Shown here one piece after another: positions 22,228-53,076 of a stretch of DNA of 64,000 nt. The DNA is from Terriglobia bacterium (GTDB taxonomy: Bacteria; Acidobacteriota; Terriglobia; 20CM-2-55-15), in contig CBDCFM010000021.1 in the NCBI GenBank assembly GCA_965216035.1, forward strand, positions 4,236 through 68,235. The letters run 5' to 3'. Every line of letters begins with the position of its first letter. The stretch's first letter is position 1. The notes under the pieces are model-generated. The model saw nothing but the letters and a program-made list of their open reading frames with translations, made no database searches and was not told where the DNA came from. The translations under genes were made by a program, and so were the position numbers.

Positions 22228-22289
22228 GTCAGAGCCCTGTTTCGTCTCACGTTTTTTCAACAATTCAATAGGGGAAACAGGGCTCTGAC
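22228..22289. repeat. perfect 16-bp inverted repeat with a ~30-nt loop immediately after ilvA (terminator or REP-like element)
   Basis: GTCAGAGCCCTGTTTC ... GAAACAGGGCTCTGAC, followed by ccattttcg. Confidence 0.35.
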
Positions 22290-22487
22290 GCCATTTTCGA
22301 GGGCCGTTAGCCGGGCATTGAAGGGACTCGGATCAAGATCCTGGAAAAAACCTCCCTTCCACCCGGCTGACAGACAGCAGGGGTGGACGACCTGTGGGAC
22401 AAGACTGTGGAACAGGCTTTTCGAGATATCATTAACGAGGACGGACACGCAACTGGAACACAGTATCGAAAAGGCAGGCCACACCCG

Positions 22488-24512: not shown

Positions 24513-24700
24513 TGCGTATTCCGGACCATCCTGAACACTGATTCCGATCCATCGTGAACACCGATTCCGGGATCGTGAACGCGGATTCCGGGATCCTGAA
24601 CAGTGATTCCGGTGATCCTGAACACCGATTCCGGCCATCGTGATCACTCGTCGGTAGCGAAGTTTGGAGCTTTTAGGTTCTCCTGAAGCACAGGAGGGCC

Positions 24701-26260: not shown

Positions 26261-27012
26261 TGGAACAAACCCTGGAGAAGATGAACCAGATGAAGCTATC
26301 GGCCATGGTCGAGGCCCTGGAGCAGCAACGCCGCTCGAATCAGTACACGGATCTCGGCTTCGAGGAACGTCTGGGCCTACTGGTGGATGAGGAGTGGACG
26401 GCCCGGGAGCACCGCAAGCTCACCCGACGCCTGCGCGCGGCGAAGCTGCGCGACGCGACGGCATCGCTGGAAAACGTCGACTTCAAACATCGTCGCCGTC
26501 TGGACCGTTCCCAAGTCCTCGCCCTGGGCTCCTGCGGGTGGATCCAAGACCGGCACAATCTTCTCATCACCGGTCCGACCGGCATCGGAAAGAGTTTTCT
26601 GGCTTCGGCTTTCGTCGAACGCGCCTGCCGGCGGGGTTTTAACGCCACCTACGTCCGCATGCCTCGGCTCTTGCACCAACTGGCGGTCGGCCGTGGCGAC
26701 GGCTCCTACACCCGAGTCCTGGCCCGTCTGGCCAAAACCGATCTGCTGGCCATCGACGACTGGCTCCTGGCCCCGCTGCGCGACGCTGAACGCCGGGACC
26801 TGATCGAAGTCGTCGAGGAACGGAGCGAACGTTCCGCCATCTTGATCGCCAGCCAGCTCCCGGTCCCCGACTGGCACGGCGTCATTGGCGACCCGAACCA
26901 GGCCGACGCCATCTGCGATCGCCTCCTCCACAATGCGCACCGTATCGAACTGAAAGGGGCATTGATGCGGCAAACCAAGACCCAACCCAAGACGTTGAAG
27001 GAGTCCCGATGA
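26254..27012 (+). CDS. istB: IS21-family helper ATPase IstB
   Basis: Walker A LLITGPTGIGKSFLA. It overlaps the end of istA. Confidence 0.85.
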   Translation: MLMEQTLEKMNQMKLSAMVEALEQQRRSNQYTDLGFEERLGLLVDEEWTAREHRKLTRRLRAAKLRDATASLENVDFKHRRRLDRSQVLALGSCGWIQDRHNLLITGPTGIGKSFLASAFVERACRRGFNATYVRMPRLLHQLAVGRGDGSYTRVLARLAKTDLLAIDDWLLAPLRDAERRDLIEVVEERSERSAILIASQLPVPDWHGVIGDPNQADAICDRLLHNAHRIELKGALMRQTKTQPKTLKESR

Positions 27013-27401
27013 TCGGCGCACCGATGCATCCACACGCCGCCGCCAGGGGGTACTCCAGGCCGGCCCCGGACCCAATCGTCGCTCCTGCGCAATCCTCGCG
27101 CGAAGGAAGTGCGGGAATCCGGGTCCGGGCGCGGAACGCGCGCCTCACGCAGGGCACGGGGCCTGTGGAAACTGCCGCAGCCGTGCAAATGGGAATGGTG
27201 GCCTTCGGCCGACTTTCTCTTGATCATTTCCACCGCTGCTTGCAAAAGCCTCCGCAAAAAACGCTCCCGGCTTTCGCACAGTTACACACAGGCCGGCGGC
27301 GATTTATCACAATAATTTTGGAAAGGACTAAAACAGAGAAAACCTGGACTCTGAAAGGAATAAACTGAGACGCTAACCCGTCGCTTCGCTCCGGCGAGTG
27401 T

Positions 27402-29162
27402 TCACGATGGCCGGAATCGGTGTTCATGATTCCGGAACTGGTGTTCACGATCAGCGGAATACCCATTGAGCACGTGCTTGGGGAATTCCCTCCAGACCAA
27501 AGCCCTCGCCCGATCCAACATGTATTCATCCTGATCGAAATCGGGATCCAGTTCCAGCAGGATGCCCGCGATGGTGATCTGTGACTTAATAAAGAGCGCA
27601 ATGTTGAAGCGGGTTTGAAATCCGGCTGTGGCCAGGTCAACGATCAGCCTCTGAAGGGTCGGGAATACCTCGGACTTCTGCCCCACCGCTCGGTCCACGA
27701 TTTCACCTATCTTTTCGTGTTCTGCAGCAGACGCCGGTGGCCATTCCTCAATCAGCGCCCCCACATTATTCACGATACGCTTGGTGTTTCCGAGATGGAC
27801 TCCGAGGACCAGTTGAACGAGTTGTGCTCGCTGCGCCCGAGGGAAACTGCCGTAGAGTCCCCAATCCAAAAGGGCAATTTGGTACGGATTCGAGGCGTCT
27901 TCAGAAACATGGAAGACGTTGCCGGCGTGGGGATCACCGTGGAAGATGGCCTCTTCTGCTGAGGAAAATATTACATCGACCGTGAGAACGTCACTTAGAC
28001 GCTGGGCCATTTCCTTACGGTCACCCGGCTGGCCGGTGTGCGCATCCGTGATCTTATTTCCAGGGACAAACTCCATCGCTGTCACGTTTGGTGTTGAAAG
28101 CGGGTACAGATGAGGTACCCGGACTGCGGGGTTGCCGGCGTAGTAGGTTTCGGCCAAAGCCAAGTTCCGCTGCTCATCCACAATGCGGATTTCGCTCGAG
28201 AGTGCTGTTTTGACATCCCGAAAGGTGTCGGAGAGCGGAATGTCGCCAAGACCGTAGGCGCTGCTGTTTTCCTCGAAGAACAGGGAGAGTTGATCGAGTA
28301 TTTCAAGTTCCCGCGGCAGCGATTCCAGGACGTAGGGCTTGACGACCTTGAAAACGATATCTTCTTCGCTTTCTCTCTCTGCCTGGATGAGGGTGGCGCG
28401 GATCACGGCTCCGACGCTGGCTTCGGCCAAGATATCTTCAGCGAATCGGACTTGAAATGTGTCGATAGCTTCTTGACCGATGTCCTCCTCGATCAATCCG
28501 ACTATTTCTTCAGGATCTGAAGTCGCAATGCCGTTTTCCAGGGTCTGCAAAGCCATGCGGAGGTCCGGCGACAGGTCTGGATTACGAGCCAGAATCTGAC
28601 CAATCTTTTGCAGCGAGGGTGTCCTGTCAGTGAACTTGAGCAGCCGGTCTGCCCTGCCCGTACCTGCGGGCAGATAGGTCAAGTTTAAAATTCGCTCGAA
28701 AATCCGTTCGTCGCCCAACCCATCCAGGAAAAACAAGAGTGAATCGTGGACAACGGGAATCCAATCTGATGCGCTACCCGGGACAAGGTCGAGAATACTG
28801 GAATGGTGGATCAGCAATTCCAGAATCTCCCTACGGAACGGTTCCAGGTCGAGTGATCGAAGCAAGGTCAAGGCTTCAGAACGATGTACTTGCGGCGTAG
28901 TCCCGGCTGAGCGAGGACTGAGGAACTGCTGAACTATCGCCTGAGATTCGACATCCAATTCCGGCAGCAATGTATTCAGCAGACGGATGCCTGCCAGGTC
29001 GGCGTCGAAACGTGTGTAATGGGCGGGTGGCGTCGGCAGCTCCAGGTCGGCACCATCCGCCATGGGAGCGAGGCACAGGAGGGGGAGGATTACAGCATTT
29101 GAAAGAAATCGTCGCGTCATTAGTCGGTTTTTACAAAAACAACGGAAAGTCTTCCTCTGCAT
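27402..29162 (-). CDS. ABC1/UbiB-family atypical protein kinase; the last ~21 codons and the stop are derived from the IS21 end
   Basis: Kinase-like motifs KVVKP, HGDPHAGNV and LDWG. The N-terminus looks like a signal peptide (MTRRFLSNAVILPLLCLAPMA). Confidence 0.7.
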   Translation of the reverse strand: MQRKTFRCFCKNRLMTRRFLSNAVILPLLCLAPMADGADLELPTPPAHYTRFDADLAGIRLLNTLLPELDVESQAIVQQFLSPRSAGTTPQVHRSEALTLLRSLDLEPFRREILELLIHHSSILDLVPGSASDWIPVVHDSLLFFLDGLGDERIFERILNLTYLPAGTGRADRLLKFTDRTPSLQKIGQILARNPDLSPDLRMALQTLENGIATSDPEEIVGLIEEDIGQEAIDTFQVRFAEDILAEASVGAVIRATLIQAERESEEDIVFKVVKPYVLESLPRELEILDQLSLFFEENSSAYGLGDIPLSDTFRDVKTALSSEIRIVDEQRNLALAETYYAGNPAVRVPHLYPLSTPNVTAMEFVPGNKITDAHTGQPGDRKEMAQRLSDVLTVDVIFSSAEEAIFHGDPHAGNVFHVSEDASNPYQIALLDWGLYGSFPRAQRAQLVQLVLGVHLGNTKRIVNNVGALIEEWPPASAAEHEKIGEIVDRAVGQKSEVFPTLQRLIVDLATAGFQTRFNIALFIKSQITIAGILLELDPDFDQDEYMLDRARALVWREFPKHVLNGYSADREHQFRNHEHRFRPS

Positions 29163-36385: not shown

Positions 36386-36895
36386 TCAGAGGTCGTCCGC
36401 AGGCGGGTCCGCCAGCTCCCCGCGTTGCTTCTTCCGTTCACCGGTGGTGGAATAGCCGCGTTCCCGGTCGATGTCCTGTACGTGAACCGTGACGGACCCC
36501 AATGCCGGAAGACCTGCCACGAAGCTGTCGATCGCATTTCCGAGGGTTTCGGCGGCGTGCCTGCGAACCTCCCCCGTGCGTCCCGGCGTATCGTTGCCGG
36601 CCGCGAATGTGAGGTGAAGAAAACCCTTGGAGAGATCGCCTCCAACACCTGAGTGATAAACAGGGATCACGGCGTGTTTGAGGTTGCGTTTATTGATCAT
36701 CGGAACCCATTCGGGTGTGGGGCCATCGGCGCCTGGGAAGTGTGGCCCCTGTCCTTCAGCCGCAGCTTTCTCCATACGGAGACCGGCGACGACCTCTACA
36801 AGGTGATCGAGAAGTTTTCGGGCATCAAAGCCTGTGGCTAGGATGAAATCGTCGCTCAACCAGTCTTCGGGAACTTCCAGTCTCAAATGCGGCAT
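36386..36895 (-). CDS. 5-carboxymethyl-2-hydroxymuconate isomerase (CHMI/HpaF)-family protein
   Basis: MPH... start, and FLHLTFAAGNDTPGRTGEVRRHAAETL is colinear with HpcD FVHMTLKIGAGRSLESRQQAGEMLFE. Confidence 0.5.
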   Translation of the reverse strand: MPHLRLEVPEDWLSDDFILATGFDARKLLDHLVEVVAGLRMEKAAAEGQGPHFPGADGPTPEWVPMINKRNLKHAVIPVYHSGVGGDLSKGFLHLTFAAGNDTPGRTGEVRRHAAETLGNAIDSFVAGLPALGSVTVHVQDIDRERGYSTTGERKKQRGELADPPADDL

Positions 36896-37830
36896 CAGGA
36901 CTCCCGGAAATCGTAAAGCTTGCGCGGGTTGACCACGAGAATCTGTTCCAATATGCCGGGATCGTGATGTGCCACGGGCCAGATCCAGTAGTTCGCAATG
37001 TCGCCATCATTGGGCATCTTGTTTGGCGGGTCCGGTTTGGGAGTAATGATCACAGTGTTCATATTCGGGCGTGGCCGGTCGGTGCCGCTAATGACGTTTC
37101 CCGGAAAGTGCTTCAGTAACGCGTGCGCGAACCCCAGGGCGAGGGCCCAGTCCTCAGGGCGCGCGGACCGCGTGTGCCGGTCCGGTGATGTCACTTTCCA
37201 GAAGATGTCGTCCCGGTGTCCACCCAGCTCGAGCAGTCGTTCAAAGTAGTCGTTCTCTTCGACCGGTACATGCACGTCGGGCCGCCCCATGTGATCAATG
37301 ATCACGGGCGTGGGCAGCGACCGTATCAACGGTTCCATCTGGTCAAAGGTATCCGGCAGGAAATAGAGTTCCGTGTGCCAACCCAGCGGTGCGATTCTTT
37401 CTGAGATGCGCAGGATGATGTCCGTCTCCGGCGCTTCGCTCGTGATGTGTGGCAGGAAAGCAAAGCGCACGCCGCGGACGCCGACTTCATGCATGCGCCG
37501 GAGTTCTTCTGCAGTCACATCTTCTGTGACGCTGACCACACCGGCGGCGCGCCCATCCATCTGTTCCAGCGCATCGACGACGACATCGTTGTCGGTGCCG
37601 TGGCAGGTCGCAGCCACCACGACGAAACCCCAGAATCCCATCCGGTCGATCAGAACTTCTTTTTGTTCCGCCCAGGTGGCGGCGAAGGGTCGATATTTCG
37701 ACTTTGCCGACAGAGGAAACAGGTCGAACGGCCCGATCACGTGCATGTGGGCGTCAATTGCCCTCTCCGGCATCTCGAAGATGAGAGGCGCGGGGTTGGG
37801 ATCTTGCTTTACGTATGGCTCAGCGCCCAT
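36895..37830 (-). CDS. amidohydrolase-2 family metal-dependent hydrolase (ACMSD/LigI-like TIM barrel)
   Basis: AIDAHMHV metal-binding start; 1-nt overlap with the CHMI-like gene. Confidence 0.7.
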   Translation of the reverse strand: MGAEPYVKQDPNPAPLIFEMPERAIDAHMHVIGPFDLFPLSAKSKYRPFAATWAEQKEVLIDRMGFWGFVVVAATCHGTDNDVVVDALEQMDGRAAGVVSVTEDVTAEELRRMHEVGVRGVRFAFLPHITSEAPETDIILRISERIAPLGWHTELYFLPDTFDQMEPLIRSLPTPVIIDHMGRPDVHVPVEENDYFERLLELGGHRDDIFWKVTSPDRHTRSARPEDWALALGFAHALLKHFPGNVISGTDRPRPNMNTVIITPKPDPPNKMPNDGDIANYWIWPVAHHDPGILEQILVVNPRKLYDFRES

Positions 37831-38362
37831 ATCCGCCTAGTCTATTCCCCGGTTCGTCCTTCTGCCGCACCATCCCGCAATATCGCACAACTGGATGCCG
37901 GAACAAAATGGTTGCCCGGCATCGCCTCAAGCTGATCGTGTGCGCTGGCATGGGGAAGTAAACTATTTGTCCGCCCGCCCGCTTCCCACGTCAGAAGTGA
38001 GTTGCCTGATAGTTTCGTCATGATCCGAATCGATCGTCTGTGTACGCTGGACGCCTCCGCTCCAATGCGGTGCCCTCACCGTCAAATCTCGACGAGTCGT
38101 TCTGGCCCGGCATCTCTCTGGGAAAGGCTTGCGATTTTTCAACGAGAGTGCGGATCGAAGGTAGATCGACCGGATACGCCCCCAAGTCTACGCCGTGATA
38201 ATATTTGTGTGAGTAGGTGTAGACCTGCATTCAGAACGCCCCCTTCCGAATTTGTGTCGCCGCCGCCCATGCCATTGATGTCCCTGACAGGCGAGGGGGC
38301 CGCTATCAAGATCACGCGACCGAAACCGGGGGTCTTGGGAGCGACAGACCGATTGTGCAATC

Positions 38363-39298
38363 GTGAAACACAGCATGCAACCTGCGAACAGTCAGCCGAA
38401 CTTCGATGTTACCGTCCGCGTGGGATGCAGTCTCGTCTACGAAGTCACAGGCACGGCTTCGCTGCTGCTGAATCTTAGACTGAGTCCGGATCCCAGTCGC
38501 TCCGTACTCTTCGAGGCGCTGACGCTGGGCAGTGACCTTCCGTCTGAGGTATTTAGTGACAGCCACGGTAACCGCGTATGTCGCGTCACTCTCGCGCCGG
38601 GCACCAACTGTATCCGGCACGACGCAATCGTTGCGGTGTCCTCCCAAGTGGACAACCATGGTCTGATCACCAGCGTTCCGCAGGCTCCGGGGGATCTCCC
38701 GGCTCCGTTGCTGCGCTATACACTACCCAGCCGGTATTGCGACTCCGACAAGATGACTAATTTCGCCTGGGAGAAATTCGGCCCGGTCGAGCACGGAATC
38801 GGGCGAGTTCAGGCGATCAGCCGCTGGATTCACGAAAATTTCGAATATCGCTATATGTCGGGTAGCTCCAATTTGTCGGCATGGGACGCATTGCAGCGGG
38901 GTTACGGCGTTTGCCGTGATTTTGCGCACATCGCCGTCGCGCTCAATCGCACGTTCAACCTCCCAGCGCGCTATGTGACGGGGCACCTACCCGACATCGG
39001 TTTCCCCGAACCGGACAACCACATGGATTTCCATGCATATGCCGAAGTCTACATCGGTGGAACCTGGTTCACGACCGACCCCCGCTTCCATGTCCCGCGC
39101 ATCGGCCGCATCAGGGTTGGCTGGGGGCAAGATGCCGTAGATGCGGCGTTCTCGACAATCTTTGGCGGCGCCACGATGACGTACTTTCAGGTGTGGGCCT
39201 ACCAGGTGGCGCGTGGGTCTGTGAATGTGGGTGATCCAATCGATCTCACGCAGCGTCTGGACAATGCCTGGACGGTCCGGACGGACCCGGTGGGGTGA
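38363..39298 (+). CDS. transglutaminase-like cysteine protease superfamily protein with N-terminal Bact_transglu_N-like region
   Basis: Catalytic triad context GYGVCRDFAHIAVAL ... DFHAYAEVYIGGTWFTTDP. Confidence 0.75.
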   Translation: MKHSMQPANSQPNFDVTVRVGCSLVYEVTGTASLLLNLRLSPDPSRSVLFEALTLGSDLPSEVFSDSHGNRVCRVTLAPGTNCIRHDAIVAVSSQVDNHGLITSVPQAPGDLPAPLLRYTLPSRYCDSDKMTNFAWEKFGPVEHGIGRVQAISRWIHENFEYRYMSGSSNLSAWDALQRGYGVCRDFAHIAVALNRTFNLPARYVTGHLPDIGFPEPDNHMDFHAYAEVYIGGTWFTTDPRFHVPRIGRIRVGWGQDAVDAAFSTIFGGATMTYFQVWAYQVARGSVNVGDPIDLTQRLDNAWTVRTDPVG

Positions 39299-39450
39299 TT
39301 TGGTGCCCCGCTTTGAAGGTTGGACAAGGCAAGGGCGGCGGTTGCGGTTAAGTTCAGAGGAATTCTGGTGGCAGGTTCCTTGTCAGAGGGCGGGGTCGTT
39401 CATACGGCCATCCATGGCCGAATGGCCTTTGCCTCTCGTCATCATCAAAA

Positions 39451-40176
39451 TTGTCGGCGGCTATGTTTGACCGAATCGTGTTGACTTGTGAACACGGCGG
39501 CAATCATATTCCGGCGAGATACGCGCCTCTCTTTAGTTCCGCTGCCGCAGAACTGGAAGGGCATCGAGGCTACGATGTGGGGGCTCTGGAGGTAGCCCGT
39601 TTCCTGGCGCGAAAGCTCGGGGTGGGGCTGTTCTCAGGCAGGGCGTCCAGATTGCTCGTCGATCTCAACCGGTCACTGGGCCACACGGGGCTCTTCTCCG
39701 AGTACGTGCAGGACCTCGATTCCGTAGAGCAGATGCGGATACTCCGACGCCATTACCATCCGTACAGAGACCGGGTTGAGAATGCGCTCCGGAGCGAGAC
39801 GAACCGTCGTCGCGTGTTACACCTCAGCATTCACAGTTTCACGCCGGAGTGGGATGGGGCACCGCGTCGGGCGGATGTCGGGCTGCTATACGATCCCCAG
39901 CGCAGCATCGAACGCCAGGCCTGCGCACGTCTGTTGGGCCGACTCAATGGTATTGATCCGACACTCACTGTGCGCCGCAACTATCCCTATCGCGGAACAG
40001 GCGATGGCTTCACCACCCATCTTCGAAAGACGCTGGCTTCAGATCGATATGCGGGTATCGAGATTGAACTGAATCAGGGAGGAGTCGCCTCGGGTCCGGG
40101 GCGTCGGCACATCGGGGCAGTTCTGGAAAACGCTATCCGACAGGAGCTGAGCCCCAGCCCTCGGCCCCCAGACTGA
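39451..40176 (+). CDS. N-formylglutamate amidohydrolase (FGase)-family zinc hydrolase
   Basis: LTCEHGGNHIP ... LHLSIHSFTP ... GIEIELNQ is typical of the family. Confidence 0.65.
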   Translation: MSAAMFDRIVLTCEHGGNHIPARYAPLFSSAAAELEGHRGYDVGALEVARFLARKLGVGLFSGRASRLLVDLNRSLGHTGLFSEYVQDLDSVEQMRILRRHYHPYRDRVENALRSETNRRRVLHLSIHSFTPEWDGAPRRADVGLLYDPQRSIERQACARLLGRLNGIDPTLTVRRNYPYRGTGDGFTTHLRKTLASDRYAGIEIELNQGGVASGPGRRHIGAVLENAIRQELSPSPRPPD

Positions 40177-40261
40177 CGGATTCAATCCTGTCGTTTAGCT
40201 AATAAGTCATTAATGGCACTGGACATCGAAGGGCCGTATCGTGCATAGAGTAGAAGGGGTG

Positions 40262-40430
40262 GCCCTGGCAGGCTTGGGGGGAAAAGGCTCGTTTTTCGGC
40301 AGTCCGCCATGCGGCACAGGATGTGCCACGATTTTCGATGGCTGTAAGCCATGCGAGAATTACACGTCTCGGATGGCGATGCTGAAAAAGTCATGGATGG
40401 CTTTTCGAGCATCCTGTTAGTGGGCTTGCC
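40262..40430. repeat. conserved ~150-nt intergenic element, copy A (palindrome GGCAC-N5-GTGCC at 40313-40327)
   Basis: Most positions are identical to 43875..44025 over more than 100 nt, with two short indels. Confidence 0.5.
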
Positions 40431-40448
40431 TGAGAGATCCCGTACGCT

Positions 40449-42977
40449 TTGAGGCCGCTGGCTGGAATCAGAGATCGCGCTATGGTGAACGTAAAAAATT
40501 TGGCATACGAGCCCTTACCGGGCCATTACGATGAATTGATGGCCCCCGACGGCTCCGTTCGCCCCCACTGGCGTCCTCTTGTTGACGTCCTGGAAGGCTT
40601 GGGCCCCGATGAATTGAATCGGAGGGTGCATGAGAGTGTGAGGATGGTTCGCGACAACGGAGCCACCTTTCAGTTCCAGAAGGATGTCGGCGTCCAAAGG
40701 GAACGTCCCTGGCCGCTGGACCTGATTCCCATGGTCATCGACAGGGCGGAGTGGGATGCTCTAGCTCAGGGCGTGGCCCAGCGTGCTCGGTTACTCAACA
40801 TGATTCTGGCTGATCTTTACGGTCCGCAGAAACTGCTCCGGGATCGGTTGCTTCCAGCGGAACTGCTCTACGCCCACCCAAGGTTTCTCCGGCCATGTTC
40901 GGGTATCGAGCCCATTGATGGTGTGTGGTTGACGGTATACGCCCTCGATCTTGCCCGTTCTGAGGACGGGAGCTGGTGGATCCTTAGCGATCGGACCGAT
41001 GCGCCTACGGGATCCGGATTTGCCCTGGAGAATCGGCTCGTGACGAATCGGGCCCTGTCCGAAGCATTTGAAGCATCGAGCGTCCGGCGGCTATCAGGAT
41101 ACTTTCGAACACATCGGTCCACCCTGGCCCGATTGGCGCCTCGGAACCAGGAAAACCCGCGCATCGTGCTCCTCTCGCCCGGACCCGAGACCGAAACCTA
41201 CTTTGAGCAAGCACTGCTGTCACGATACCTGGGCTACACACTGGTTGAAGGATCCGACCTCGTCGTCAGGGACCACCGTGTTTTTCTCAAGACGCTCGGT
41301 GGTTTGCTGCCCGTGGACGTCGTTTGGCGCCGCCAGGATTCCGAGTCGTGCGATTCGCTGGAACTGGGAGGTGGATCCTCCGCTGGTGCTCCCGGGCTGC
41401 TGGACTGTGTCCGTGGAGGTCACGTCACCATTGCCAATGCCCTGGGAAGCGGACTGGCGGAGTCGCCCGCGCTGATGGCATTCCTTCCCAACCTGGCGAA
41501 TCACCTCATCGGCGAAGACCTCCGAATTCCGTCCGTAGCGACCTGGTGGTGTGGGCAAGAGGGCCCGCGCACAGAAGTCCTGGACCGGCTGGGCGAGTTG
41601 GTGATCAAACCGGCCTTCCCGGGCCCGCGGAGGGAGCGTCGGTTCGGTCACGAGCTGGGGGGCGAAGAACGCATGGCTCTCAGAGACGACATCCTCGGAG
41701 AACCCCGCGCCTATCTCGCACAAGAGCAAATACCTCTCTCGACTACTCCCGTCGGAATCCCCGGTTCGCTGTCTCCACGGTTCATGGTCATCCGGGCGTT
41801 TGCAGTCTCCGACGGCCAATCCTACGCGGTTATGCCCGGCGGGCTCGGACGGGTTTCGCCGAGCACCGCGTCCTACGATGTGACGGTCCTCGGCGGGGGC
41901 AGCAGCAAGGACATCTGGGTTGTGGGCGAGTCCGATGAACTACCCGTCACGCTCCTGCCGAGCGCGCCACGTCCGATCGATGTCAGTCGCGCCACATTCG
42001 ATCTGCCCAGCCGCGTGGCTGAGAATCTCTACTGGCTTGGGCGTTACGCGGAACGACTGGACGCAGCCGCACGGCTGATTCGGGCGACCCTCCCCCTCCT
42101 GTTTGGAGAATCATCTCGTTCGTCTTCCGCATTGAGCGGCGCTCTCAGCTTTCTGGAAGAACTCGGATACGCTGAACACAAGGCCGAATGGTCAACCACC
42201 CGGGAGCTCGAAGACGCTTTGGAACGTGCGATCGGGTTGGCTGTGGCGGAGTCGGACCGTAAGGGGAGTTTCGGGTGGCAGATTTTCCATCTTCACCGGA
42301 AGGCCCGCTCGCTGGGTGATCGGCTTTCAGTGGACGCGTGGAACATAATCTCGCAGCTCGAATCCGACTATGCGGCTGGAAACTCGCTTCCCCTCGAACG
42401 GGGACTCCCCGAACTACTCGACCGCATCGTTATTGCCCTGACCGGCTTCAGTGGTGCTGTGGGGGACGCGATGACCCGGGGTCACGGCTGGCGCTTTCTG
42501 GATATCGGACGGAGGATCGAGCGTGCTCTGCAGGTGATCGAGCTGTTGCGACATGGGTTGTTTCGTGTGGCCGAAGACGAAAGGGCGCGGATCGAGCTGC
42601 TCTTGGTTGCCGCTGACAGCACAATGACCTATCGATCTCGATACTTGACCTCACTGCAGGCGAATCTCACGATGGATCTCTTGCTGATCGATGAAGCCAA
42701 CCCTCGCGGGCTGGCCTTCCAGCTGCGCCGCCTCAAGGAGCATGTCGAAAGGTTGCCGGACGTCGATACGGTGGCCCGCCGTTCTGCCGAATCGTGGCGC
42801 CTGACCGACGCGATGGCGGCGGTCGAACTCGCTGAAATCGAGTTGCTGGCACGGGTGGAGGATGGGCGACGCGACGGCCTCGGGCAATTACTCGATCGCG
42901 TCAGCGGCGATCTCTCCCAACTCTCGGAGCACTTGACACGCGACTACCTGACCCATGCCCGGCCGTCGCCCCAGTGA
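40449..42977 (+). CDS. fused circularly permuted ATP-grasp type 2 (N-terminal) and alpha-E domain (C-terminal) protein
   Basis: The N-terminal ~480 aa are colinear with the standalone CP-ATP-grasp at 45035..46504. The C-terminus starts with the alpha-E motif SRVAENLYWLGRYAER, 842 aa. The ATG at 40482 is an alternative start. Confidence 0.75.
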   Translation: MRPLAGIRDRAMVNVKNLAYEPLPGHYDELMAPDGSVRPHWRPLVDVLEGLGPDELNRRVHESVRMVRDNGATFQFQKDVGVQRERPWPLDLIPMVIDRAEWDALAQGVAQRARLLNMILADLYGPQKLLRDRLLPAELLYAHPRFLRPCSGIEPIDGVWLTVYALDLARSEDGSWWILSDRTDAPTGSGFALENRLVTNRALSEAFEASSVRRLSGYFRTHRSTLARLAPRNQENPRIVLLSPGPETETYFEQALLSRYLGYTLVEGSDLVVRDHRVFLKTLGGLLPVDVVWRRQDSESCDSLELGGGSSAGAPGLLDCVRGGHVTIANALGSGLAESPALMAFLPNLANHLIGEDLRIPSVATWWCGQEGPRTEVLDRLGELVIKPAFPGPRRERRFGHELGGEERMALRDDILGEPRAYLAQEQIPLSTTPVGIPGSLSPRFMVIRAFAVSDGQSYAVMPGGLGRVSPSTASYDVTVLGGGSSKDIWVVGESDELPVTLLPSAPRPIDVSRATFDLPSRVAENLYWLGRYAERLDAAARLIRATLPLLFGESSRSSSALSGALSFLEELGYAEHKAEWSTTRELEDALERAIGLAVAESDRKGSFGWQIFHLHRKARSLGDRLSVDAWNIISQLESDYAAGNSLPLERGLPELLDRIVIALTGFSGAVGDAMTRGHGWRFLDIGRRIERALQVIELLRHGLFRVAEDERARIELLLVAADSTMTYRSRYLTSLQANLTMDLLLIDEANPRGLAFQLRRLKEHVERLPDVDTVARRSAESWRLTDAMAAVELAEIELLARVEDGRRDGLGQLLDRVSGDLSQLSEHLTRDYLTHARPSPQ

Positions 42978-43872
42978 TTCCACGATGAGCGTTACGGCCG
43001 GGGAACGGACTCTGATCGTCTCACACCGAACGCGATATACATACGCCGAGCTTGTCTCACATTCGCTCCACAGGGGCTTTCTGACACCCCGGACGACTCC
43101 GTACCAGGACGTACGCGTCAGCCGATTTACCATCGATCCTCCGCCTGCGGGCTCGACGACCCATGATGACTATTTCGGAAACCGAGTCTCGCTGTTCATG
43201 ATCGATGCGCCTCATAACGAGTTGATCGTTGAGGCCCAGAGCGAGCTGACCATCCGTCCGAACCCGCTCCTGCATTCGGAGATTCCGACCTGCAATCTGA
43301 ATATCGAGAGCGTTCGCCAGCGGATCCACCAGCCGGAGTCGCCCGAAGACCTGCAAGTCTATGAATTCTGCTTCAACTCGCCCCACGTGTCTCAGAGTTC
43401 GGAGTTGGCCCGCTACGCGTCTTCCTGCTTCACCCAACATGAAGACTTTCTGGCCGGCGTGGGGGCGCTGATGCACCGAATCCATTCTGGATTTCGCTAC
43501 GATCCCACGGTTACGACCGTTTCGACCCCGGTTTCCGAAGTGTTCGTCCACAAACACGGCGTGTGCCAGGATTTTGCGCATCTCATGATCGCGTGTCTGC
43601 GGTCCCTTGGCCTGGCTGCGCGATACGTCAGCGGTTACCTCGTGCCCGGCCCCGATGTAATCGGGGCCCAGGCTTCCCACGCCTGGGTCGCGGCTTACTG
43701 TTCGGGAATCGGATGGACGGATTTCGATCCGACCAACGACGTGGCGCCCTCGGGGAGTCACATTACTCTGGCCTGGGGTCGCGACTACTCCGATGTCAGC
43801 CCGTTCCGGGGCGTTATTTTTGGGGGCGGGGAACACCGGGTATCGGTCGAAGTCTCCGTGTCGCCAGAATAG
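42955..43872 (+). CDS. transglutaminase-like protein (Bact_transglu_N plus TGase core)
   Basis: IVSHRTRYTYAELVSHSL N-domain, HGVCQDFAHLMIA, SHAWVAAYCSGIGWTDFDPTND. The ATG at 42985 is an alternative start 8 nt after the upstream stop. Confidence 0.8.
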   Translation: MPGRRPSDSTMSVTAGERTLIVSHRTRYTYAELVSHSLHRGFLTPRTTPYQDVRVSRFTIDPPPAGSTTHDDYFGNRVSLFMIDAPHNELIVEAQSELTIRPNPLLHSEIPTCNLNIESVRQRIHQPESPEDLQVYEFCFNSPHVSQSSELARYASSCFTQHEDFLAGVGALMHRIHSGFRYDPTVTTVSTPVSEVFVHKHGVCQDFAHLMIACLRSLGLAARYVSGYLVPGPDVIGAQASHAWVAAYCSGIGWTDFDPTNDVAPSGSHITLAWGRDYSDVSPFRGVIFGGGEHRVSVEVSVSPE

Positions 43873-43874
43873 GA

Positions 43875-44025
43875 GGCTGGGGAAAAACGCTCGTTTTTCC
43901 TCGAGTCTGCTATGCGGCACAAGATGTGCCACGATTTTCGATGGCTGTCAGCCATTGAAAATGTGAGCCATGCGGGAATCACACTTCTCGGATGGCTTTT
44001 TCAGCATCCTGATAGTGCCCACCAC
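43875..44025. repeat. conserved ~150-nt intergenic element, copy B (palindrome GGCAC-N5-GTGCC at 43916-43930)
   Basis: It starts 3 nt after the TG2 stop and is the same element as copy A. Confidence 0.5.
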
Positions 44026-44052
44026 AGAGCAAATGCAGGTGACGCTGTCGGT

Positions 44053-45030
44053 TTATTCGGTTTGCGATCCTTCGTCCGCCGGTGCCGCCTCAGCCGGTTC
44101 GGGATCGGCGCAAAACGTTTCCAGGATCGCAGAGCTGGCATCATTCAGCTTCGTCTGCAGGACGTCGATGAAGTCGTGCACCCCCTCGGCTATGATCTCA
44201 TCCACGTGCATATAGTCCAGGTAGGCCCGCAGTCGGCCGAGTACCTGTTCGGCACGATTCTGGAACGTCGAGCCGGGCGTCTCTGAGATCGCTCGCACCG
44301 CTTCTTCCGCCTCGGTAACGCAGTGCCGGATGGACCGCGGGAACGCCCTGTCGAGAACCAGAAAAGCGACGAGGCGTTCCGGAATGATCCGTTGGTGCCG
44401 CTTTCTGTACATCTGCAACGCGCTGGTGGACCGCAACAGCGCCGCCCAAAGAATGTCGCCGTAGGGCCGGACAACCGACGGATCCTCCGGCAGCGAAAAC
44501 AGGTATCGCACGTCGAGCATACGGGAAGTCTTATCGGCCCGCTCGATCATCCGGCCCAGACGAAAGAAATGCCAACCCTCGTCATGAGACATCGTAGTGT
44601 CAGTAATGCCACTGATCAACCGGCAGGTCCGGACGACGCCTCTAAAGAAATCCTGAGACGAATTCATCGTCTCGGTAGCGGTTCGAAGCTTCAAATGTAA
44701 GAAGTTCAACTCCTCCCACATTGCAAGGGTGATGAAGTCACGCGCGGTATTGGCATTCGACCGTGCGGCATTGACACTGAACAGGATCGAGTTGGGGTTG
44801 TTGAGATCGTAAGTCATGAACCGGATGACGTTGTCGGCACTGATCACGTCGTACTTCGACTCAAACAGCTCACGGACTCCCAGCGCTTTAACCAGAGGCT
44901 CCCAATGACCGACATCCGATGGCAAATCCAGGGTCAGGTACGAATTCACGGAAATCAGCCGCGCGGTGTTTTCAGCGCGCTCCAGGTATCGGCTGCACCA
45001 GTACAGGGATTCGGCAACGCGGCTGAGCAT
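44053..45030 (-). CDS. alpha-E domain protein
   Basis: MLSRVAESLYWCSRYLERAENTARL is the alpha-E signature. Confidence 0.75.
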   Translation of the reverse strand: MLSRVAESLYWCSRYLERAENTARLISVNSYLTLDLPSDVGHWEPLVKALGVRELFESKYDVISADNVIRFMTYDLNNPNSILFSVNAARSNANTARDFITLAMWEELNFLHLKLRTATETMNSSQDFFRGVVRTCRLISGITDTTMSHDEGWHFFRLGRMIERADKTSRMLDVRYLFSLPEDPSVVRPYGDILWAALLRSTSALQMYRKRHQRIIPERLVAFLVLDRAFPRSIRHCVTEAEEAVRAISETPGSTFQNRAEQVLGRLRAYLDYMHVDEIIAEGVHDFIDVLQTKLNDASSAILETFCADPEPAEAAPADEGSQTE

Positions 45031-45034
45031 CAGG

Positions 45035-46504
45035 TCACGGACCTCTGCCAGGAAGATTCTGGGCCTTCGCCGTTTCTCCCGACAACACCCAGGTGTCCTT
45101 ACTGCCGCCGCCCTGAGACGAATTGACGACGAGGGATCCTTTCTTCAGTGCAACTCGGGTCAGTCCTCCAGGCATGACATAAATGTCTTCGCCATAAAGA
45201 ACGTACGGCCTCAAGTCGACGTGGCGCCCTTCGAACCCGCTCCCGGTGATCACCGGCACCCGCGACAGCGACAGAGTGGGTTGAGCAACATAGTTTCGCG
45301 GATTCTCTCGGATCAAGCGGCGAAAAGATTCGCAGTCGGCCTTGCTCGCATGCGGGCCAACGAGCATGCCGTATCCCCCGGCTTCGTTGGCGCTCTTGAC
45401 AACCAGGGTTTCCAGATGTTCCAGGACGTGTTGACGGTCTTTGCTATCCCAGCAGACAAATGTTGGAACGTTGGCCAGGACGGGATCCTCTCCGAGGTAG
45501 TATCGGATGACTTTCGGTATGTATGCATAGACAGCCTTGTCATCCGCGATCCCGCAGCCCGGGGCGTTCGCCAGCGCCACACGCCCCTTTCTATAGGCTG
45601 CAAAGATCCCGGGTACGCCGAGGCAGGTGTCTTTCCGGAATGCCAGCGGGTCAAGGAAGTCGTCATCGATCCTCCGATAGAGCACGTCGACCCGCCTGGG
45701 GCCCCGGGTCGTCCGCATGATCAGGTCGCCATCCAGGATCGCCAGATCACTCCCCTCGACGAGCTCGACACCCATTTCCCTTGCAAGAAAGGAGTGTTCA
45801 AAGTATGCGGAGTTGTAGATTCCGGGAGTCAAAACCGCAACGGTGGGGTTCTCCTGGCCCACGGCCAGCGATTCAAGGGTGGACAGCAAATGGCTCGGGT
45901 AGTCGCTCACCGGTCGGACGTTCGAATTCTGGAAGGCGACGGGAAACGTTTCCTTGAGAACCCTTCGATTTTCCAGAACATAGGAGACTCCGGAAGGACA
46001 GCGGAGGTTGTCTTCGAGCACGTAGTACTGCCCGTCCGTATCGCGCACGAGGTCCGCACCGTTGATATGACTCCAGACGCTCCGCGGCGGATCGAGGCCC
46101 ATGCAAACTTCGCGGAAAGACTGCGAGGACAGGATCAGTTCCCGAGGCACGACCCCGTCCTTCAGGATCTTCTGATCATGGTAGAGGTCATCAATGAAGA
46201 GGTTCAGTGCCAGCATACGCTGGCAAAGGCCACGCTCAAGGGTTTCCCATTCGGGGGCCTCGACGATCCGGGGAATGATGTCGAACGGAAAGATGCGCTC
46301 CGTCCCCGCGTTGTCTTCATACACCGTGAAGGTCACGCCTGCTCCGTAGAAAGCCTGTTCTGCGGCCTTCTGTCGAGCATGGATTTCCGAAATCGGAAGT
46401 CCCCGGATCCGTTCCGCAAGGGGGCGGGCTCCGGCGCGGGGTTGCCCGCGCGATACAAACATTTCGTCGTGGAAACCCGTCGGATCGTATTGACTGAACG
46501 GCAT
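45035..46504 (-). CDS. circularly permuted ATP-grasp type 2 protein
   Basis: 489 aa, colinear with the CP_ATPgrasp_2 family and with the N-terminal half of 40449..42977. Confidence 0.8.
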   Translation of the reverse strand: MPFSQYDPTGFHDEMFVSRGQPRAGARPLAERIRGLPISEIHARQKAAEQAFYGAGVTFTVYEDNAGTERIFPFDIIPRIVEAPEWETLERGLCQRMLALNLFIDDLYHDQKILKDGVVPRELILSSQSFREVCMGLDPPRSVWSHINGADLVRDTDGQYYVLEDNLRCPSGVSYVLENRRVLKETFPVAFQNSNVRPVSDYPSHLLSTLESLAVGQENPTVAVLTPGIYNSAYFEHSFLAREMGVELVEGSDLAILDGDLIMRTTRGPRRVDVLYRRIDDDFLDPLAFRKDTCLGVPGIFAAYRKGRVALANAPGCGIADDKAVYAYIPKVIRYYLGEDPVLANVPTFVCWDSKDRQHVLEHLETLVVKSANEAGGYGMLVGPHASKADCESFRRLIRENPRNYVAQPTLSLSRVPVITGSGFEGRHVDLRPYVLYGEDIYVMPGGLTRVALKKGSLVVNSSQGGGSKDTWVLSGETAKAQNLPGRGP

Positions 46505-47195
46505 GGCAGCTCCAAATTATTCTATTTCTGTAGGTCCTTGCAAATTGTCGTGGGTTTTCTCAGACCCGTCATTGAACCGCGGAAGAGAACGGACGCGTCG
46601 AGCACGGAACATCAAACCCTGGGGAGAGAGGTCGCTTTGACGCACATACACGTTCCGATAGATCACCTGTAGTACACATCGACTGGAACACCCCATTGCA
46701 GACGTTCAAACATTCCTCCCTGGGATGGATCGGTGTCGGGGCCGGACTCGTTTCGTGTTGGAGCTGCCGTCTCGGAAGGCCATGGATAGCCTGTTCCTGG
46801 CGGAATGCCCCACGCGGCTCAATACAGACCTGCCATTGTCGTACATTGTCAAAACCAATGAAGTTTTCTGAACTCACCCCGGAGCACCCGATCAAGGTTG
46901 AGAAGAACGCCGTCAGAAGTACAGTTTCTAGAGTGTGGTGTGGACACGGCTGCATTCCGATTGCACGCCATGATGGACACAGCAATGTCGGTGGCGGGAC
47001 CCCTCATCCTGATGGCCACTCGAAGCTCACTTCTACCATTCGTGAACTCACGGCGTGATGTTTCGTACAATAGAAACCGAACTTTCACAGAATCGGCGCA
47101 TGTGCGGTTCCCGGAAAGCTGTCATTCCCGAAAGCCGGGATGTCGTGTGTGAATCGCTGTAAACTTTTACTTGATGTAACCATGTGAGGCTGAAC

Positions 47196-47342
47196 AATGT
47201 CGCAGTTGAATGGTGATAAATCCCGCCATAACCGTCAGCGGAAAGAAAAACTTCGGAAGAGGGTTCTACTTCGGGATTTACGCGGAGACCCGCGGGCCCA
47301 GGCCAAGGACCCTCCGAAAAAGACCAAAAAGCCCGCCGAGTG
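47196..47342 (+). CDS. unannotated 48-aa highly basic small protein (MSQLNGDKSRHNRQRKEKLRKRVLLRDLRGDPRAQAKDPPKKTKKPAE)
   Basis: ATG with a GAGG Shine-Dalgarno 7 nt upstream. It falls below the 60-aa cut-off of the ORF track and sits in a 930-bp gap otherwise free of credible ORFs. Confidence 0.35.
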
Positions 47343-47431
47343 AGGTTTGGCGAGTGAGGTTTGGACGGAGTCGTCGGTTTTGATCGGAAGCCGGCCAGGA
47401 CGCATCGTGAGTGTCGCGCCCTGGCCCCTGT

Positions 47432-48601
47432 TTATATGGATTCCGCCGAAAGCTGCGGAAAGATCCGTTCGATGTTGTCCCGGTAGAGTTGCTCGAACTC
47501 CTGCGTATCGAACACACCTGCATCGGTAAGTCCTTTAACATCGTTGACCATGTTGCTGTAGGGGAAATCGGTTCCGAACACCATCTGGTCGATGCCCACA
47601 ACCTGCCGGAGCGCACGCATCGCCACCCCATTCGCGGTGGCCGCACAGTCGTAATAGAAGCCCCGGAGCTGGTCGAGCTCCGAACCGGGTTCCGCCGTCT
47701 GCCGCAGATACGAGTCGAGATCGCCGCGGTGTCCGACAATGCGCTGGACAAGGAATGGCATCGTGCCGCCCGCATGCGAGAAAATCCAATTGATGTTGGG
47801 GAACCTCGTTGGCACGTCGTTGACGATGAGGCTCATGATCATCCGGGTCGTGTCGGTCCCGTACTCAATCGTGTTCGGGCGCATGTTCTTGACGATGTTG
47901 ATGCAGCAGGCCGCATCCGTCGGATGCGTGTAGACGGTCAGGCTACGGCGATTGAGTTCCTCCAGGAGTGGGGTGAATTGCGGTTCGCCGATGTATTGAT
48001 CGCCGTTGCTCGTCGCCAGGAACGCACCGCCCGCCCCAAGGGTGTCAATAGCATACTCCAGTTCTAGGAGGCTGTTGTCGACGTCGGGCATTGGCATCGA
48101 CGCCATCAAGACGAAACGGCCGGGGTAGTCCGCAACCATCTGCGTGCCGTATTCGTTTCCCTCGCGTGCCAGCCGACGGATGGTCTCCGCACCCTGGGCC
48201 TCGGAGACGCCCCGCTGTTGGAGCCTGTCCGGGGTAAAAGCCCCGCCGGCCTGTCCCGTCGAAATCAGCGCCGTCGCCGTCCCCGTGCTGTCCATTGCCT
48301 CGATCGATCTGTCGGGCGTCCAACCAATTCTGGCGTTGGGTGCCAGATTGACCGCCTCGAGCTCCTCGAACCAGCCGGCCGACGTGAAGTGATGATGGAC
48401 ATCGACCCGGCGGCCCGCGGCGACATCTATTCCCGCCGTTGACGTCGGCGCCTCCCCGCCTGGAGCCTCCGTCCCCTGTTCGCTGCTGCCACAGCTTGAT
48501 AGCCACACCCCCGCTCCCGCAGCCGCGAGCCCGGTCAGAAACTGCCTCCGCGGTTGGACCGGGTTCACGCCGTTCGGTCCATTCACATCGTCACACTTCA
48601 T
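47432..48601 (-). CDS. amidohydrolase-2 family hydrolase, Tat-exported lipoprotein
   Basis: Tat motif RRQFLTGLAAAGAGV plus lipobox LSSCG, then HHHF... Confidence 0.65.
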   Translation of the reverse strand: MKCDDVNGPNGVNPVQPRRQFLTGLAAAGAGVWLSSCGSSEQGTEAPGGEAPTSTAGIDVAAGRRVDVHHHFTSAGWFEELEAVNLAPNARIGWTPDRSIEAMDSTGTATALISTGQAGGAFTPDRLQQRGVSEAQGAETIRRLAREGNEYGTQMVADYPGRFVLMASMPMPDVDNSLLELEYAIDTLGAGGAFLATSNGDQYIGEPQFTPLLEELNRRSLTVYTHPTDAACCINIVKNMRPNTIEYGTDTTRMIMSLIVNDVPTRFPNINWIFSHAGGTMPFLVQRIVGHRGDLDSYLRQTAEPGSELDQLRGFYYDCAATANGVAMRALRQVVGIDQMVFGTDFPYSNMVNDVKGLTDAGVFDTQEFEQLYRDNIERIFPQLSAESI

Positions 48602-51758: not shown

Positions 51759-53076
51759 TGAACGGCCGGGAACATCATTGACAGAATAGTCCAGGCACAT
51801 CCTTTACAGTTTGTACCTCTTTCTCATTCTATTCCCCAAAGCATCTTGAATGGTAAAGGTCCGTTCGTCCATTTGTCCGAGACGAACGGTGCCGAAGTAG
51901 ACATCCCAGACGCCGTCGTCGACTTCCTCGAGTCCGACGTACTCACCTTCAAGGGTGTGGGTGATTGGAACACGATGGGCCGACCACCGGAATCCCCCGT
52001 TCCGACTGACCAGTCGCGTTTCGAAATGAGACGGATACTCGATGGGAGGCAGGCCCAACGGAAACTCCCGTGAAGAGGTTTGATAGCGGGAGTCGGGCGT
52101 TTCCTGGTCCAGCGCCTCATGGGGACGCACAGTGTTGAATTCCTCAACAAAACGATTGAACCGGAATTGCTGAGCCCGCATCGTGGCCGCTGGCGGCCGA
52201 GTGGTCTCTTGTTTCAAGGTTTTGTGCATGCGTTCGTGTCGGCCGTTTTGATCTGGCCGGCCGGGCTGAATCAATTCGGGGAAGATTCCGAGGCGGATCC
52301 ACCAGACCGATAGCCGGCTCAGTCGCCCGATGGCCGTGGTGGCGAACGGCGGCCCGTTATCGGTCCGGATGATTGCAGGGAGACCGAAGTTCCGGAAGAC
52401 ACTCTTGAATACGGACTTCGCGCGAACATGATTAGTCGAGTAGAGGCCCTTACATGCGAGCAGATACCGGGTGCAACCGTCGGTGATCGTCAACGGATAG
52501 CAATAGATGCCATCCCCAGTTTTAAACTCGCCTTTATAGTCCGCACACCAGACATCATTGGACCGATCCATTGAAGTCACGGGCTTGCCCGGATGACCCG
52601 GATAGGTGCGTCTCCGCTTCTTCTCCACAAGCCCATGACGTTTCAGCAGTTCCGAGATCGTCGATCGGGCGGGCCAGTCGACCTCGGGATGCCGGGTATT
52701 CAAGATCTTAAGAAGCTTCTTGGCCCCCCAGTGAGGATGTTTGCGGCGCAGATCGATCACCCGCCGCACCACATCGTCTGACGTCCGATGCGGGCAGCCG
52801 ACAGGACGACGGGAACGCTCCTCCAATCCGGATTGGCCATTCTCCAAGAATCTGTCAATCCACTTATATCCGGTGGGCCGGCTCACCCCGTAGCGCGCAC
52901 ACAGTTCGACGATCGAGAAAGATCGAGTAAGATAATCGGCAATAAATAATCGTTTTTGATCCATGGTCGTTGATTGATCCCAGGGCATATGAAGTCCTCC
53001 ACGGAGGACTTCATCGTGATCGATCTGTAAACCATGTACCCGGACAGATATGTAAACGATGTACCCGGACCGTACC
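51759..53076 (-). mobile_element. IS481-family insertion sequence, copy 2 (identical to copy 1), target duplication ATC
   Basis: Same 1318 bp as 1064..2381. The triplet atc occurs at 51756-51758 and 53077-53079. Confidence 0.85.
51804..52988 (-). CDS. IS481-family DDE transposase
   Basis: Identical to 1109..2293. Confidence 0.85.
   Translation of the reverse strand: MPWDQSTTMDQKRLFIADYLTRSFSIVELCARYGVSRPTGYKWIDRFLENGQSGLEERSRRPVGCPHRTSDDVVRRVIDLRRKHPHWGAKKLLKILNTRHPEVDWPARSTISELLKRHGLVEKKRRRTYPGHPGKPVTSMDRSNDVWCADYKGEFKTGDGIYCYPLTITDGCTRYLLACKGLYSTNHVRAKSVFKSVFRNFGLPAIIRTDNGPPFATTAIGRLSRLSVWWIRLGIFPELIQPGRPDQNGRHERMHKTLKQETTRPPAATMRAQQFRFNRFVEEFNTVRPHEALDQETPDSRYQTSSREFPLGLPPIEYPSHFETRLVSRNGGFRWSAHRVPITHTLEGEYVGLEEVDDGVWDVYFGTVRLGQMDERTFTIQDALGNRMRKRYKL

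Follow-up and report, generated by a model that had tools for sequence, protein, structure and literature searches.

A six-gene block at positions 38375–46504 of a 64,000 nt stretch of contig CBDCFM010000021.1, from a soil acidobacterium of the Terriglobia (this whole 64-kb stretch is called the window below), belongs to an already known, uncharacterised system, in which circularly permuted (CP) ATP-grasp, Alpha-E and transglutaminase-like proteins are encoded together. The new part of the locus is a pair of genes, encoding a transglutaminase-like protein (TG1) and an FGase-family hydrolase, that occupies the slot where most relatives carry a gene for a DUF2126 protein. It is established which families the domains belong to, that the catalytic residues are intact and that the linkage of the genes is conserved, and we consider it fairly probable that the locus is a lineage-specific variant of this widespread amidoligase system, working by the mechanism set out below. 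The features of the block are as follows.

38375–39298, forward strand: TG1, a 307 aa transglutaminase-like protein of cysteine-protease fold and of the 3ISR-like clade, at the block edge (Pfam Transglut_core, 7.6e-21)
39463–40176, forward strand: FGase-family (N-formylglutamate-amidohydrolase-like) hydrolase of 237 aa, presumed metal-dependent (Pfam FGase, 6.2e-25)
40200–40270, forward strand: conserved non-coding block 5′ of the fused gene, with the invariant runs AAGTCAT, TGGACATCG and TCGTGCATAGAGTAGAAG
40271–40429, forward strand: first copy of a hairpin-rich repeat of about 150 nt, inserted after the non-coding block and ahead of the fused-gene start
40482–42977, forward strand: fused CP-ATP-grasp and Alpha-E protein of 831 aa (Pfam CP_ATPgrasp_2, 2.3e-138; Alpha-E, 3.2e-62)
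42985–43872, forward strand: TG2, a second transglutaminase-like protein, of 295 aa (Pfam Bact_transglu_N, 6.1e-23; Transglut_core, 8.3e-21)
43871–44018, forward strand: second copy of the repeat, just past the TG2 stop codon at the convergent junction of TG2 and the unfused Alpha-E gene
44053–45030, reverse strand: unfused Alpha-E protein of 325 aa (Pfam Alpha-E, 4.2e-92)
45035–46504, reverse strand: unfused CP-ATP-grasp protein of 489 aa (Pfam CP_ATPgrasp_2, 4e-165)

These coordinates use the starts preferred by gene callers and orthologues (38375 for TG1, 39463 for FGase, an ATG at 40482 for the fused gene and 42985 for TG2) rather than those of the longest open reading frames (38363, 39451, 40449 and 42955, respectively), of which the third, from an upstream TTG, would give a fused protein of 842 aa. 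Only 4 nt lie between the unfused ATP-grasp gene and the Alpha-E gene that follows it, and the two converge on TG2. The six family assignments of an initial annotation, made from the letters of the window, were upheld by a Pfam hidden Markov model search, in which the FGase protein scored 89.1 bits against a gathering cut-off of 28.9; none of the six block proteins matched anything in NCBIfam or PADLOC. Both Alpha-E motifs that it had quoted are exact, at residue 521 of the fused protein and residue 3 of the unfused one, and the transglutaminase Cys-His-Asp cores that it had claimed are present in TG1 (Cys in GVCRDFAH, His in DFHAY, Asp in TTDPR) and intact in TG2 (Cys in GVCQDFAH, His in SHAWV, Asp in DFDP). 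In an alignment of 28 subfamily sequences the FGase protein retains 35 of 35 invariant positions, including E10, H11, H34, D38, R63, N69, R70, H124, E200 and E202. The nearest solved structures are 3ISR for TG1 (9e-43), 2ODF for FGase (Atu2144, uncharacterised; 1.2e-23) and 3N6X, annotated as a putative glutathionylspermidine synthase, for the N-terminal half of the fused protein (1.5e-71); the structure search found none covering Alpha-E or DUF2126.

To establish what is usual for the system, 549 confirmed relatives of the fused protein were found and 80 species-level loci were taken and charted with tblastn and phmmer. The best genome matches of the fused protein were Terriglobia (Acidobacteriota) metagenome-assembled genomes, at 81–82% identity. 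TG2 lay directly 3′ of the fused gene in nearly every locus with enough downstream sequence, so the fusion followed by TG2, which the initial annotation had taken as a departure from the canonical operon, is the standard arrangement. The slot immediately 5′ of the fused gene held a protein of ~1100 aa with Bact_transglu_N, Transglut_core and DUF2126 domains in 43 of the 62 adequately flanked loci; DUF2126 carries the Pfam label "putative amidoligase".

An unfused ATP-grasp and Alpha-E pair, in that order, was found within 10 kb of the fused gene in 19 of the 40 fully flanked loci. The pair lay upstream on the same strand in 14 loci, downstream on the same strand in eight, downstream and convergent in three and upstream and divergent in two. 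It is sometimes trailed by a transglutaminase gene of its own, and several loci besides the window have none. The transglutaminase of the system is supplied here by TG2 beside the fused gene. The second pair in the window is thus convergent and without its own transglutaminase, as had been reported, though it cannot be called a departure, since co-location is common and three related Terriglobia loci (L003, L083 and L084) and, beyond this clade, L071 show the convergent arrangement as well. The fusion, the downstream TG2 and the second unfused set are normal features of the system, being common across the surveyed loci.

As a separate observation, a second, divergent transglutaminase-like gene (31–35% identity to TG2) stood in tandem after TG2 in 11 loci (L031, L039, L049, L056, L057, L064, L065, L067, L069, L072 and L074). 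These are mostly from Verrucomicrobiota; L049 is labelled Proteobacteria.

The lineage-specific part of the locus is only the slot 5′ of the fused gene. The initial annotation was right that an extra transglutaminase-like gene and an FGase gene lie there, and the same two genes occupy the slot in the three related loci. Among the 80 genome loci this was seen in L003 alone, L083 and L084 being metagenome contigs that were found through their FGase homologues (72–75% identity). The annotation had also called for a comparison of neighbourhoods to see whether the FGase gene and the second ligase pair co-occur; they do so in the window and the three related loci. No DUF2126 was found anywhere in the window or in the three related loci, and no Anbu or other proteasome-family gene among the 46 open reading frames scanned across the window. 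Pfam scans of the window detected no hut-type family, and hence no histidine-utilisation context for FGase, and gave no match to RimK, RLAN, GCS2 or C39. The possibility that FGase is a split-off fragment of DUF2126 was ruled out (hhalign probability 1.7%).

Neither the order nor the orientation of the six genes differs between the window and the three related loci. In the latter the block is flanked by PFK on one side and by SelR and DUF5916 on the other, at 94–97% protein identity. In the window its flanks are instead two Amidohydro_2 genes (36895–37830 and 47432–48601, both on the reverse strand), which are absent from the context of the related loci and show no paralogy to one another (BLASTP E = 0.25). 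No remnant of PFK, SelR, DUF5916 or any gene of the locus was detected in the gaps at 37831–38374 and 46505–47431 of the window. The same six genes lie between unrelated flanks in the window and in its relatives, so a change in genomic surroundings has left the block whole, and TG1 and FGase remain at the block edge in both contexts.

A further locus, L004 (positions 9729–13237 of L004; accession number OZ253554.1), comes from the complete chromosome of a strain near-identical to that of L083, with 95–99% nucleotide identity in the flanks. It has three deletions. The first has removed TG1 and almost all of the FGase gene and left 96 nt in their place, in the second the fused gene has lost its Alpha-E half, and TG2 and the greater part of the unfused Alpha-E gene have gone, with a junction overlap of about 10 nt, and the third has removed 202 nt inside the unfused ATP-grasp gene. 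This strain, which has lost TG1 and FGase along with the ligase genes, is a natural knock-out, and the system is dispensable.

The FGase subfamily is very large (proteins of ~235 aa, 5510 matches at E ≤ 1e-10), with about seven clusters at more than 70% identity to the FGase of the window. Six relatives at 51–63% identity, sampled from different phyla, were examined, and one was solitary. The other five (L085, L087, L088, L089 and L093) lay in the same operon, Peptidase_C39_2 followed by an RLAN and RimK ATP-grasp protein, GCS2 and FGase, with FGase at about 5.6–8 kb in each locus and stop and start codons that often overlap. The operon is conserved across phyla, and its hosts include Nitrosomonas, Adhaeribacter and several metagenome-assembled genomes; a literature search found no experimental work on it. 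Because five of the six relatives sit in this operon, the window FGase has, judging from sequence relationships, branched off closely from an FGase whose normal place is in another amidoligase operon, and was apparently recruited from the RimK/GCS2 operon.

The initial annotation had described the module as duplicated. This is misleading, as the two ATP-grasp paralogues of the window are 35% identical and belong to separate families, fused and unfused, each of which spans phyla; they are ancient paralogues, not a recent duplication. In an alignment of the ATP-grasp domains of 80 fused and 29 unfused sequences, 58 positions were invariant in both families alike, and the conserved positions that they share include E267, D270, R294, D302, N330, SKD and, in most fused members, the lid-strand Lys. 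In the unfused family the strand Lys is followed by a glycine-rich lid (VVKaanExGGYG), with further invariant motifs ADDK, RHvDLRP and VNSSQGGGSKDTW, and the unfused protein of the window carries the full Lys and glycine-rich lid motif, VVKSANEAGGYG. The fused family has lost the E-x-GGYG lid after the ATP-binding Lys, together with K323 (in ADDK), H428, D430 and the NSSQ motif, and has strictly conserved motifs of its own, for example WWCGQE.

At the level of motifs, ATP-dependent amide-bond formation is predicted from the Lys and lid of the unfused copy; the lid is lost in the fused copy, which may ligate slowly or in an altered way, or may be a subunit without catalytic activity. The two ligases of the initial annotation are accordingly uncertain, since the fused family lacks the glycine-rich lid. 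The Pfam family text reportedly also describes both active and inactive versions. One reading is that the block has a single working ligase, the fused ATP-grasp being catalytically dead or strongly impaired and acting as a scaffold, substrate-recognition or regulatory subunit for TG2, which would leave one ligase with several hydrolases in place of two ligases acting on two substrates. The loss from the fused family of residues that are invariant in the unfused one points this way, but the 58 positions invariant in both, with the lid-strand Lys kept in most fused members, do not, and the strictness of motifs such as WWCGQE suggests that an altered active or binding site has been retained. We see the single-ligase arrangement as a serious possibility, though one that we lean against.

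In the mechanism that we propose, the unfused ATP-grasp protein and its Alpha-E partner would convert a carboxylate to an acyl-phosphate and then join it to an amine. The carboxylate would most likely be of the glutamate type and belong to a small metabolite or to the terminus of a protein. The fused paralogue, its lid lost, would either be another ligase, working more slowly, or a subunit without catalysis that sets specificity or regulates, and TG2, through its Cys-His-Asp residues, would hydrolyse or transfer the amide formed by the ligase. The recruited FGase would cleave an N-acyl-glutamate-type amide, in keeping with the action of its family on N-formylglutamate. In this way a ligase arm (DUF2126) would have given way, in the clade, to an additional 'eraser' arm. 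The system is probably used under nitrogen limitation, by analogy with Pseudomonas and Burkholderia. A bolder extension, which we regard as improbable, is that the RimK/GCS2 and the CP-ATP-grasp/Alpha-E systems write the same kind of bond, an N-acyl- or gamma-glutamyl amide on a protein or metabolite, and that FGase is the eraser devoted to it, which would make the Terriglobia block a minimal writer/eraser system resembling glutamylation.

To our knowledge, the reaction of the CP-ATP-grasp, Alpha-E and transglutaminase genes has been left unassigned since their description in 2008–2009. The 'Anbu operon' (COG2308-COG2307-COG1305-Anbu) was reportedly described by Valas and Bourne in 2008, and Iyer, Abhiman, Burroughs and Aravind are said to have proposed in 2009 a CP-ATP-grasp / Alpha-E / transglutaminase peptide-ligase system, predicted to form an amide (peptide or isopeptide) bond and to trim it. 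According to the initial annotation the system was known only from comparative genomics and had no defined substrate; in agreement with this, our literature search found no functional work on it giving a substrate. The genes are often in an operon with Anbu, and their physiological substrate and product are undefined (PMC5666114, PMC6376114, PMC3235984). The sole activity shown is the release of orthophosphate from ATP, carried out by the ATP-grasp protein of Yersinia bercovieri (PMC6376114, PMC5666114). Pull-downs gave no stable protein complexes (PMC6376114). The ATP-binding candidate enzymes Rv2411c and Rv2567 of Mycobacterium tuberculosis were expressed and no gamma-aminobutyric acid (GABA)-trehalose was made (bioRxiv 10.64898/2026.04.15.718621). 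In Pseudomonas putida the operon was expressed at a higher level on nitrate than on ammonium and is among the candidate nitrogen-sensitive promoters (PMC8050072).

Some of these results bear on the nature of the product, which the mechanism leaves as a small metabolite or a protein. The products might all be small nitrogen metabolites, similar to glutathionylspermidine or a gamma-glutamyl-amine, which are recycled for nitrogen or stress metabolism, with no protein tag involved. The annotation of 3N6X, the nearest solved ATP-grasp relative, the small N-acyl amino acid on which the FGase family acts, the response of the P. putida operon to nitrogen source and the pull-downs are consistent with this, and no candidate tag gene or small conserved open reading frame was found in the cluster. 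Protein or peptide substrates are nonetheless indicated by the transglutaminase-like fold and by the presence of Anbu, a proteasome homologue, in the standard operons. In addition, lysates with Rv2411c and Rv2567 did not make the single metabolite tested, and no transporter or precursor-supply gene is conserved with the block. On balance, products confined to small metabolites appear somewhat unlikely.

The initial annotation had noted a conserved element of ~150 nt at the junctions of the block. The two copies are real; they lie on the same strand, are about 80–87% identical with internal indels, and share a 26-mer core that is exact in both (0.00 matches expected by chance). The repeat consists of nested palindromes, with GGCACA-N3-TGTGCC and ATGGCT-N3-AGCCAT conserved, and folds better than shuffled sequence on both strands (RNA fold z-scores of −3.4 on the forward and −3.6 on the reverse strand for the first copy, and −5.4 and −4.6 for the second). 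It is not a conserved part of the system, since it is absent at both orthologous junctions in the three related loci, where the spacers between TG2 and Alpha-E are only 10–150 nt (63 nt in L083 and 10 nt in L084). No match to the repeat reached the gathering score in a search of Rfam 15 across the window, and a permissive search gave one match at chance level (E = 0.9). An exact-pattern search for the core gave no matches in two scans of Joint Genome Institute (JGI) metagenome contigs. A search with nhmmer over 1.6 Mb of the window and related loci recovered the two copies and one weak candidate, all three within the 64 kb of the window, and no clear terminal inverted repeat or target site duplication was seen. 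The weak match (E = 0.02) lies at 22254–22348, between ilvA and pheA, shares the core ATTTTCGAgGGCcGTtAGCC and has a long hairpin of its own; it could be a degenerate relative.

Because it is missing from the orthologous junctions, the repeat is best read as a recent, lineage-specific hairpin insertion, resembling repetitive extragenic palindromic (REP) sequences or miniature inverted-repeat transposable elements (MITEs), that was inserted twice and may influence how the fused gene and TG2 are expressed. Both copies bracket exactly these two genes in the same orientation, and with their conserved palindromes and better-than-shuffled folding they could be taken for functional RNA or DNA signals of the system, either paired structures in the 5′ and 3′ untranslated regions or operators. 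Their absence from the three related loci, the lack of an Rfam match, the lack of any further copy in 1.6 Mb apart from the weak candidate, and the equal folding on both strands, as in palindromic REP- or MITE-like repeats, make this very unlikely. The non-coding block between the FGase gene and the first copy is a different matter. It is nearly invariant in the four lineages (AAGTCAT..GGC..TGGACATCG....TCGTGCATAGAGTAGAAG.CGTGGC), at 40200–40270 in the window, 9905–9975 in L003 and about 8740–8815 in L083 and L084, and probably serves the fused gene and TG2 as a promoter or operator.

Several points weigh against the proposed mechanism and against a role in it for TG1 and FGase. Every step, including the direction of the transglutaminase-like step (hydrolysis or transfer), is predicted from the genes. 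The replacement of DUF2126 is positional only, as an FGase hydrolase is not the functional equivalent of a DUF2126 ligase. Relationship of DUF2126 to GCS2-type ligases was unconfirmed (hhalign probability 0.1%, with shallow alignments and possible circular permutation), and its ligase character comes solely from the Pfam label. For the nitrogen link, the palindrome GGCACA-N3-TGTGCC and the NtrC control of the operon elsewhere prompted a search for sigma-54 promoters, and TGGCAC-N5-TTGCW with up to two mismatches gave 23 matches where 25.5 were expected; with no enrichment the sigma-54 idea was given up, and the link is one of analogy only. The association of TG1 with FGase, though found in two genomic contexts, is confined to one Terriglobia clade. 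TG1 has more than 120 clusters of relatives at 74–84% identity, and orthologues at 76–80% are solitary in unrelated contexts in L090, L091 and L092. The spacers between TG1, FGase and the fused gene exceed 100 nt (107–164 nt and 121–272 nt) and the promoter-like conserved block precedes the fused gene, so co-transcription of the three is doubtful.

It could thus be argued that TG1, and possibly FGase, are bystanders, the working system being the two standard modules that were left after loss of DUF2126 and the adjacency an inherited synteny within a narrow clade. The solitary TG1 orthologues, the abundance of close TG1 clusters compared with about seven for FGase, the long spacers with a separate promoter-like block, and the one solitary FGase relative are all consistent with this. 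We nevertheless judge it unlikely. TG1 and FGase lie at the block edge in two entirely different genomic contexts and were deleted with the ligase genes in L004, and association with a ligase is the norm for the FGase subfamily, whose members elsewhere sit within a different amidoligase operon. Among 89 loci a single further TG1-like gene was found, in L061, directly 5′ of an unfused set. Membership of TG1 in the system depends on its having moved with the block and been deleted with it, and is uncertain. The reading that we prefer remains that of a variant amidoligase system in which FGase has been recruited as an additional hydrolase.

Other features of the window were recorded. The 930-nt gap 5′ of the unfused ATP-grasp gene is empty apart from an open reading frame for a highly basic 48 aa protein (47197–47343, forward strand; MSQLNGDKSRHNRQRKEKLRKRVLL...KKTKKPAE), which was gene-called in all three metagenome contigs and has no homologue in the related loci. 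Two copies of an insertion sequence (IS) of the IS481 family (HTH_32/rve transposase), each 1318 bp, 100% identical and in direct orientation, are found at 1064–2381 and 51759–53076, and bracket about 49 kb that includes the cluster and leu/ilv genes. An IS21-type element at 24585–27460 includes an open reading frame for a Mu-transposase/rve protein (24701–26260) and one for IstB (26254–27012), and has inverted terminal repeats of 79 nt with 84% identity (24585–24662 and 27384–27460). A GAF-domain sigma-54 enhancer-binding protein is encoded at 5061–6728 on the forward strand, 32 kb from the cluster, and no link between the two was found.

What gives the locus its value is the recruitment of FGase, by which two amidoligase systems are connected and a glutamate-type amide is suggested, together with the natural deletion strain; nothing is added by the fusion, the supposed duplication or the repeats. 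The CP-ATP-grasp, Alpha-E and transglutaminase genes are widespread, in Proteobacteria, Actinobacteria (including M. tuberculosis), Cyanobacteria, Acidobacteriota and Verrucomicrobiota. A borrowed hydrolase from a family whose chemistry is cleavage of N-acyl-glutamate amides narrows the types of bond to be considered, and is a hint at chemistry, not at function. If the bond is shared between the two systems and FGase is its eraser, this would be the first chemical handle on the long-unsolved ligases of the 'Anbu operon'. Near-isogenic natural strains are available in which the cluster is present (L083-type) or lost (L004-type). For annotators, the fused gene with TG2 and the co-located unfused pair should be regarded as the norm, and only the exchange of DUF2126 for TG1 and FGase as special.

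Comparison with known systems places the locus among several partial likenesses. The window FGase belongs to the same Pfam family as the HutG-type N-formylglutamate amidohydrolase (the namesake of PF05013) and keeps its conserved residues, but there are no hut genes nearby and its context is one of amidoligase genes, not histidine catabolism. As in M. tuberculosis, a fused ATP-grasp/Alpha-E protein shares one genome with an unfused ATP-grasp paralogue, and neither has an assigned reaction. There, however, the sets Rv2566-Rv2567-Rv2569c and Rv2411c-Rv2410c-Rv2409c are at two separate loci, no FGase is known to be involved, and the fused gene keeps its large transglutaminase-DUF2126 neighbour. 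With the C39/RLAN-RimK/GCS2/FGase operon the window shares FGase alone, and with it a logic in which a protein of Cys-peptidase fold is combined with an ATP-grasp ligase and an FGase hydrolase. The ATP-grasp protein of that operon is of the RimK type, is not circularly permuted and has no Alpha-E partner, and the other three genes are not in the window.

The closest likeness is to the Anbu-operon system, which has the same three domain families, an unfused ATP-grasp gene followed by Alpha-E, and a fused gene followed by a Bact_transglu_N/Transglut_core gene; the fused and unfused sets lie together here, as they do in about half of the related loci. The window differs in lacking Anbu (an N-terminal nucleophile, or NTN, hydrolase) and the transglutaminase-DUF2126 protein, and its unfused pair has no transglutaminase of its own. 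In the DUF2126 slot it carries, instead, an FGase-family hydrolase and a 3ISR-like transglutaminase.

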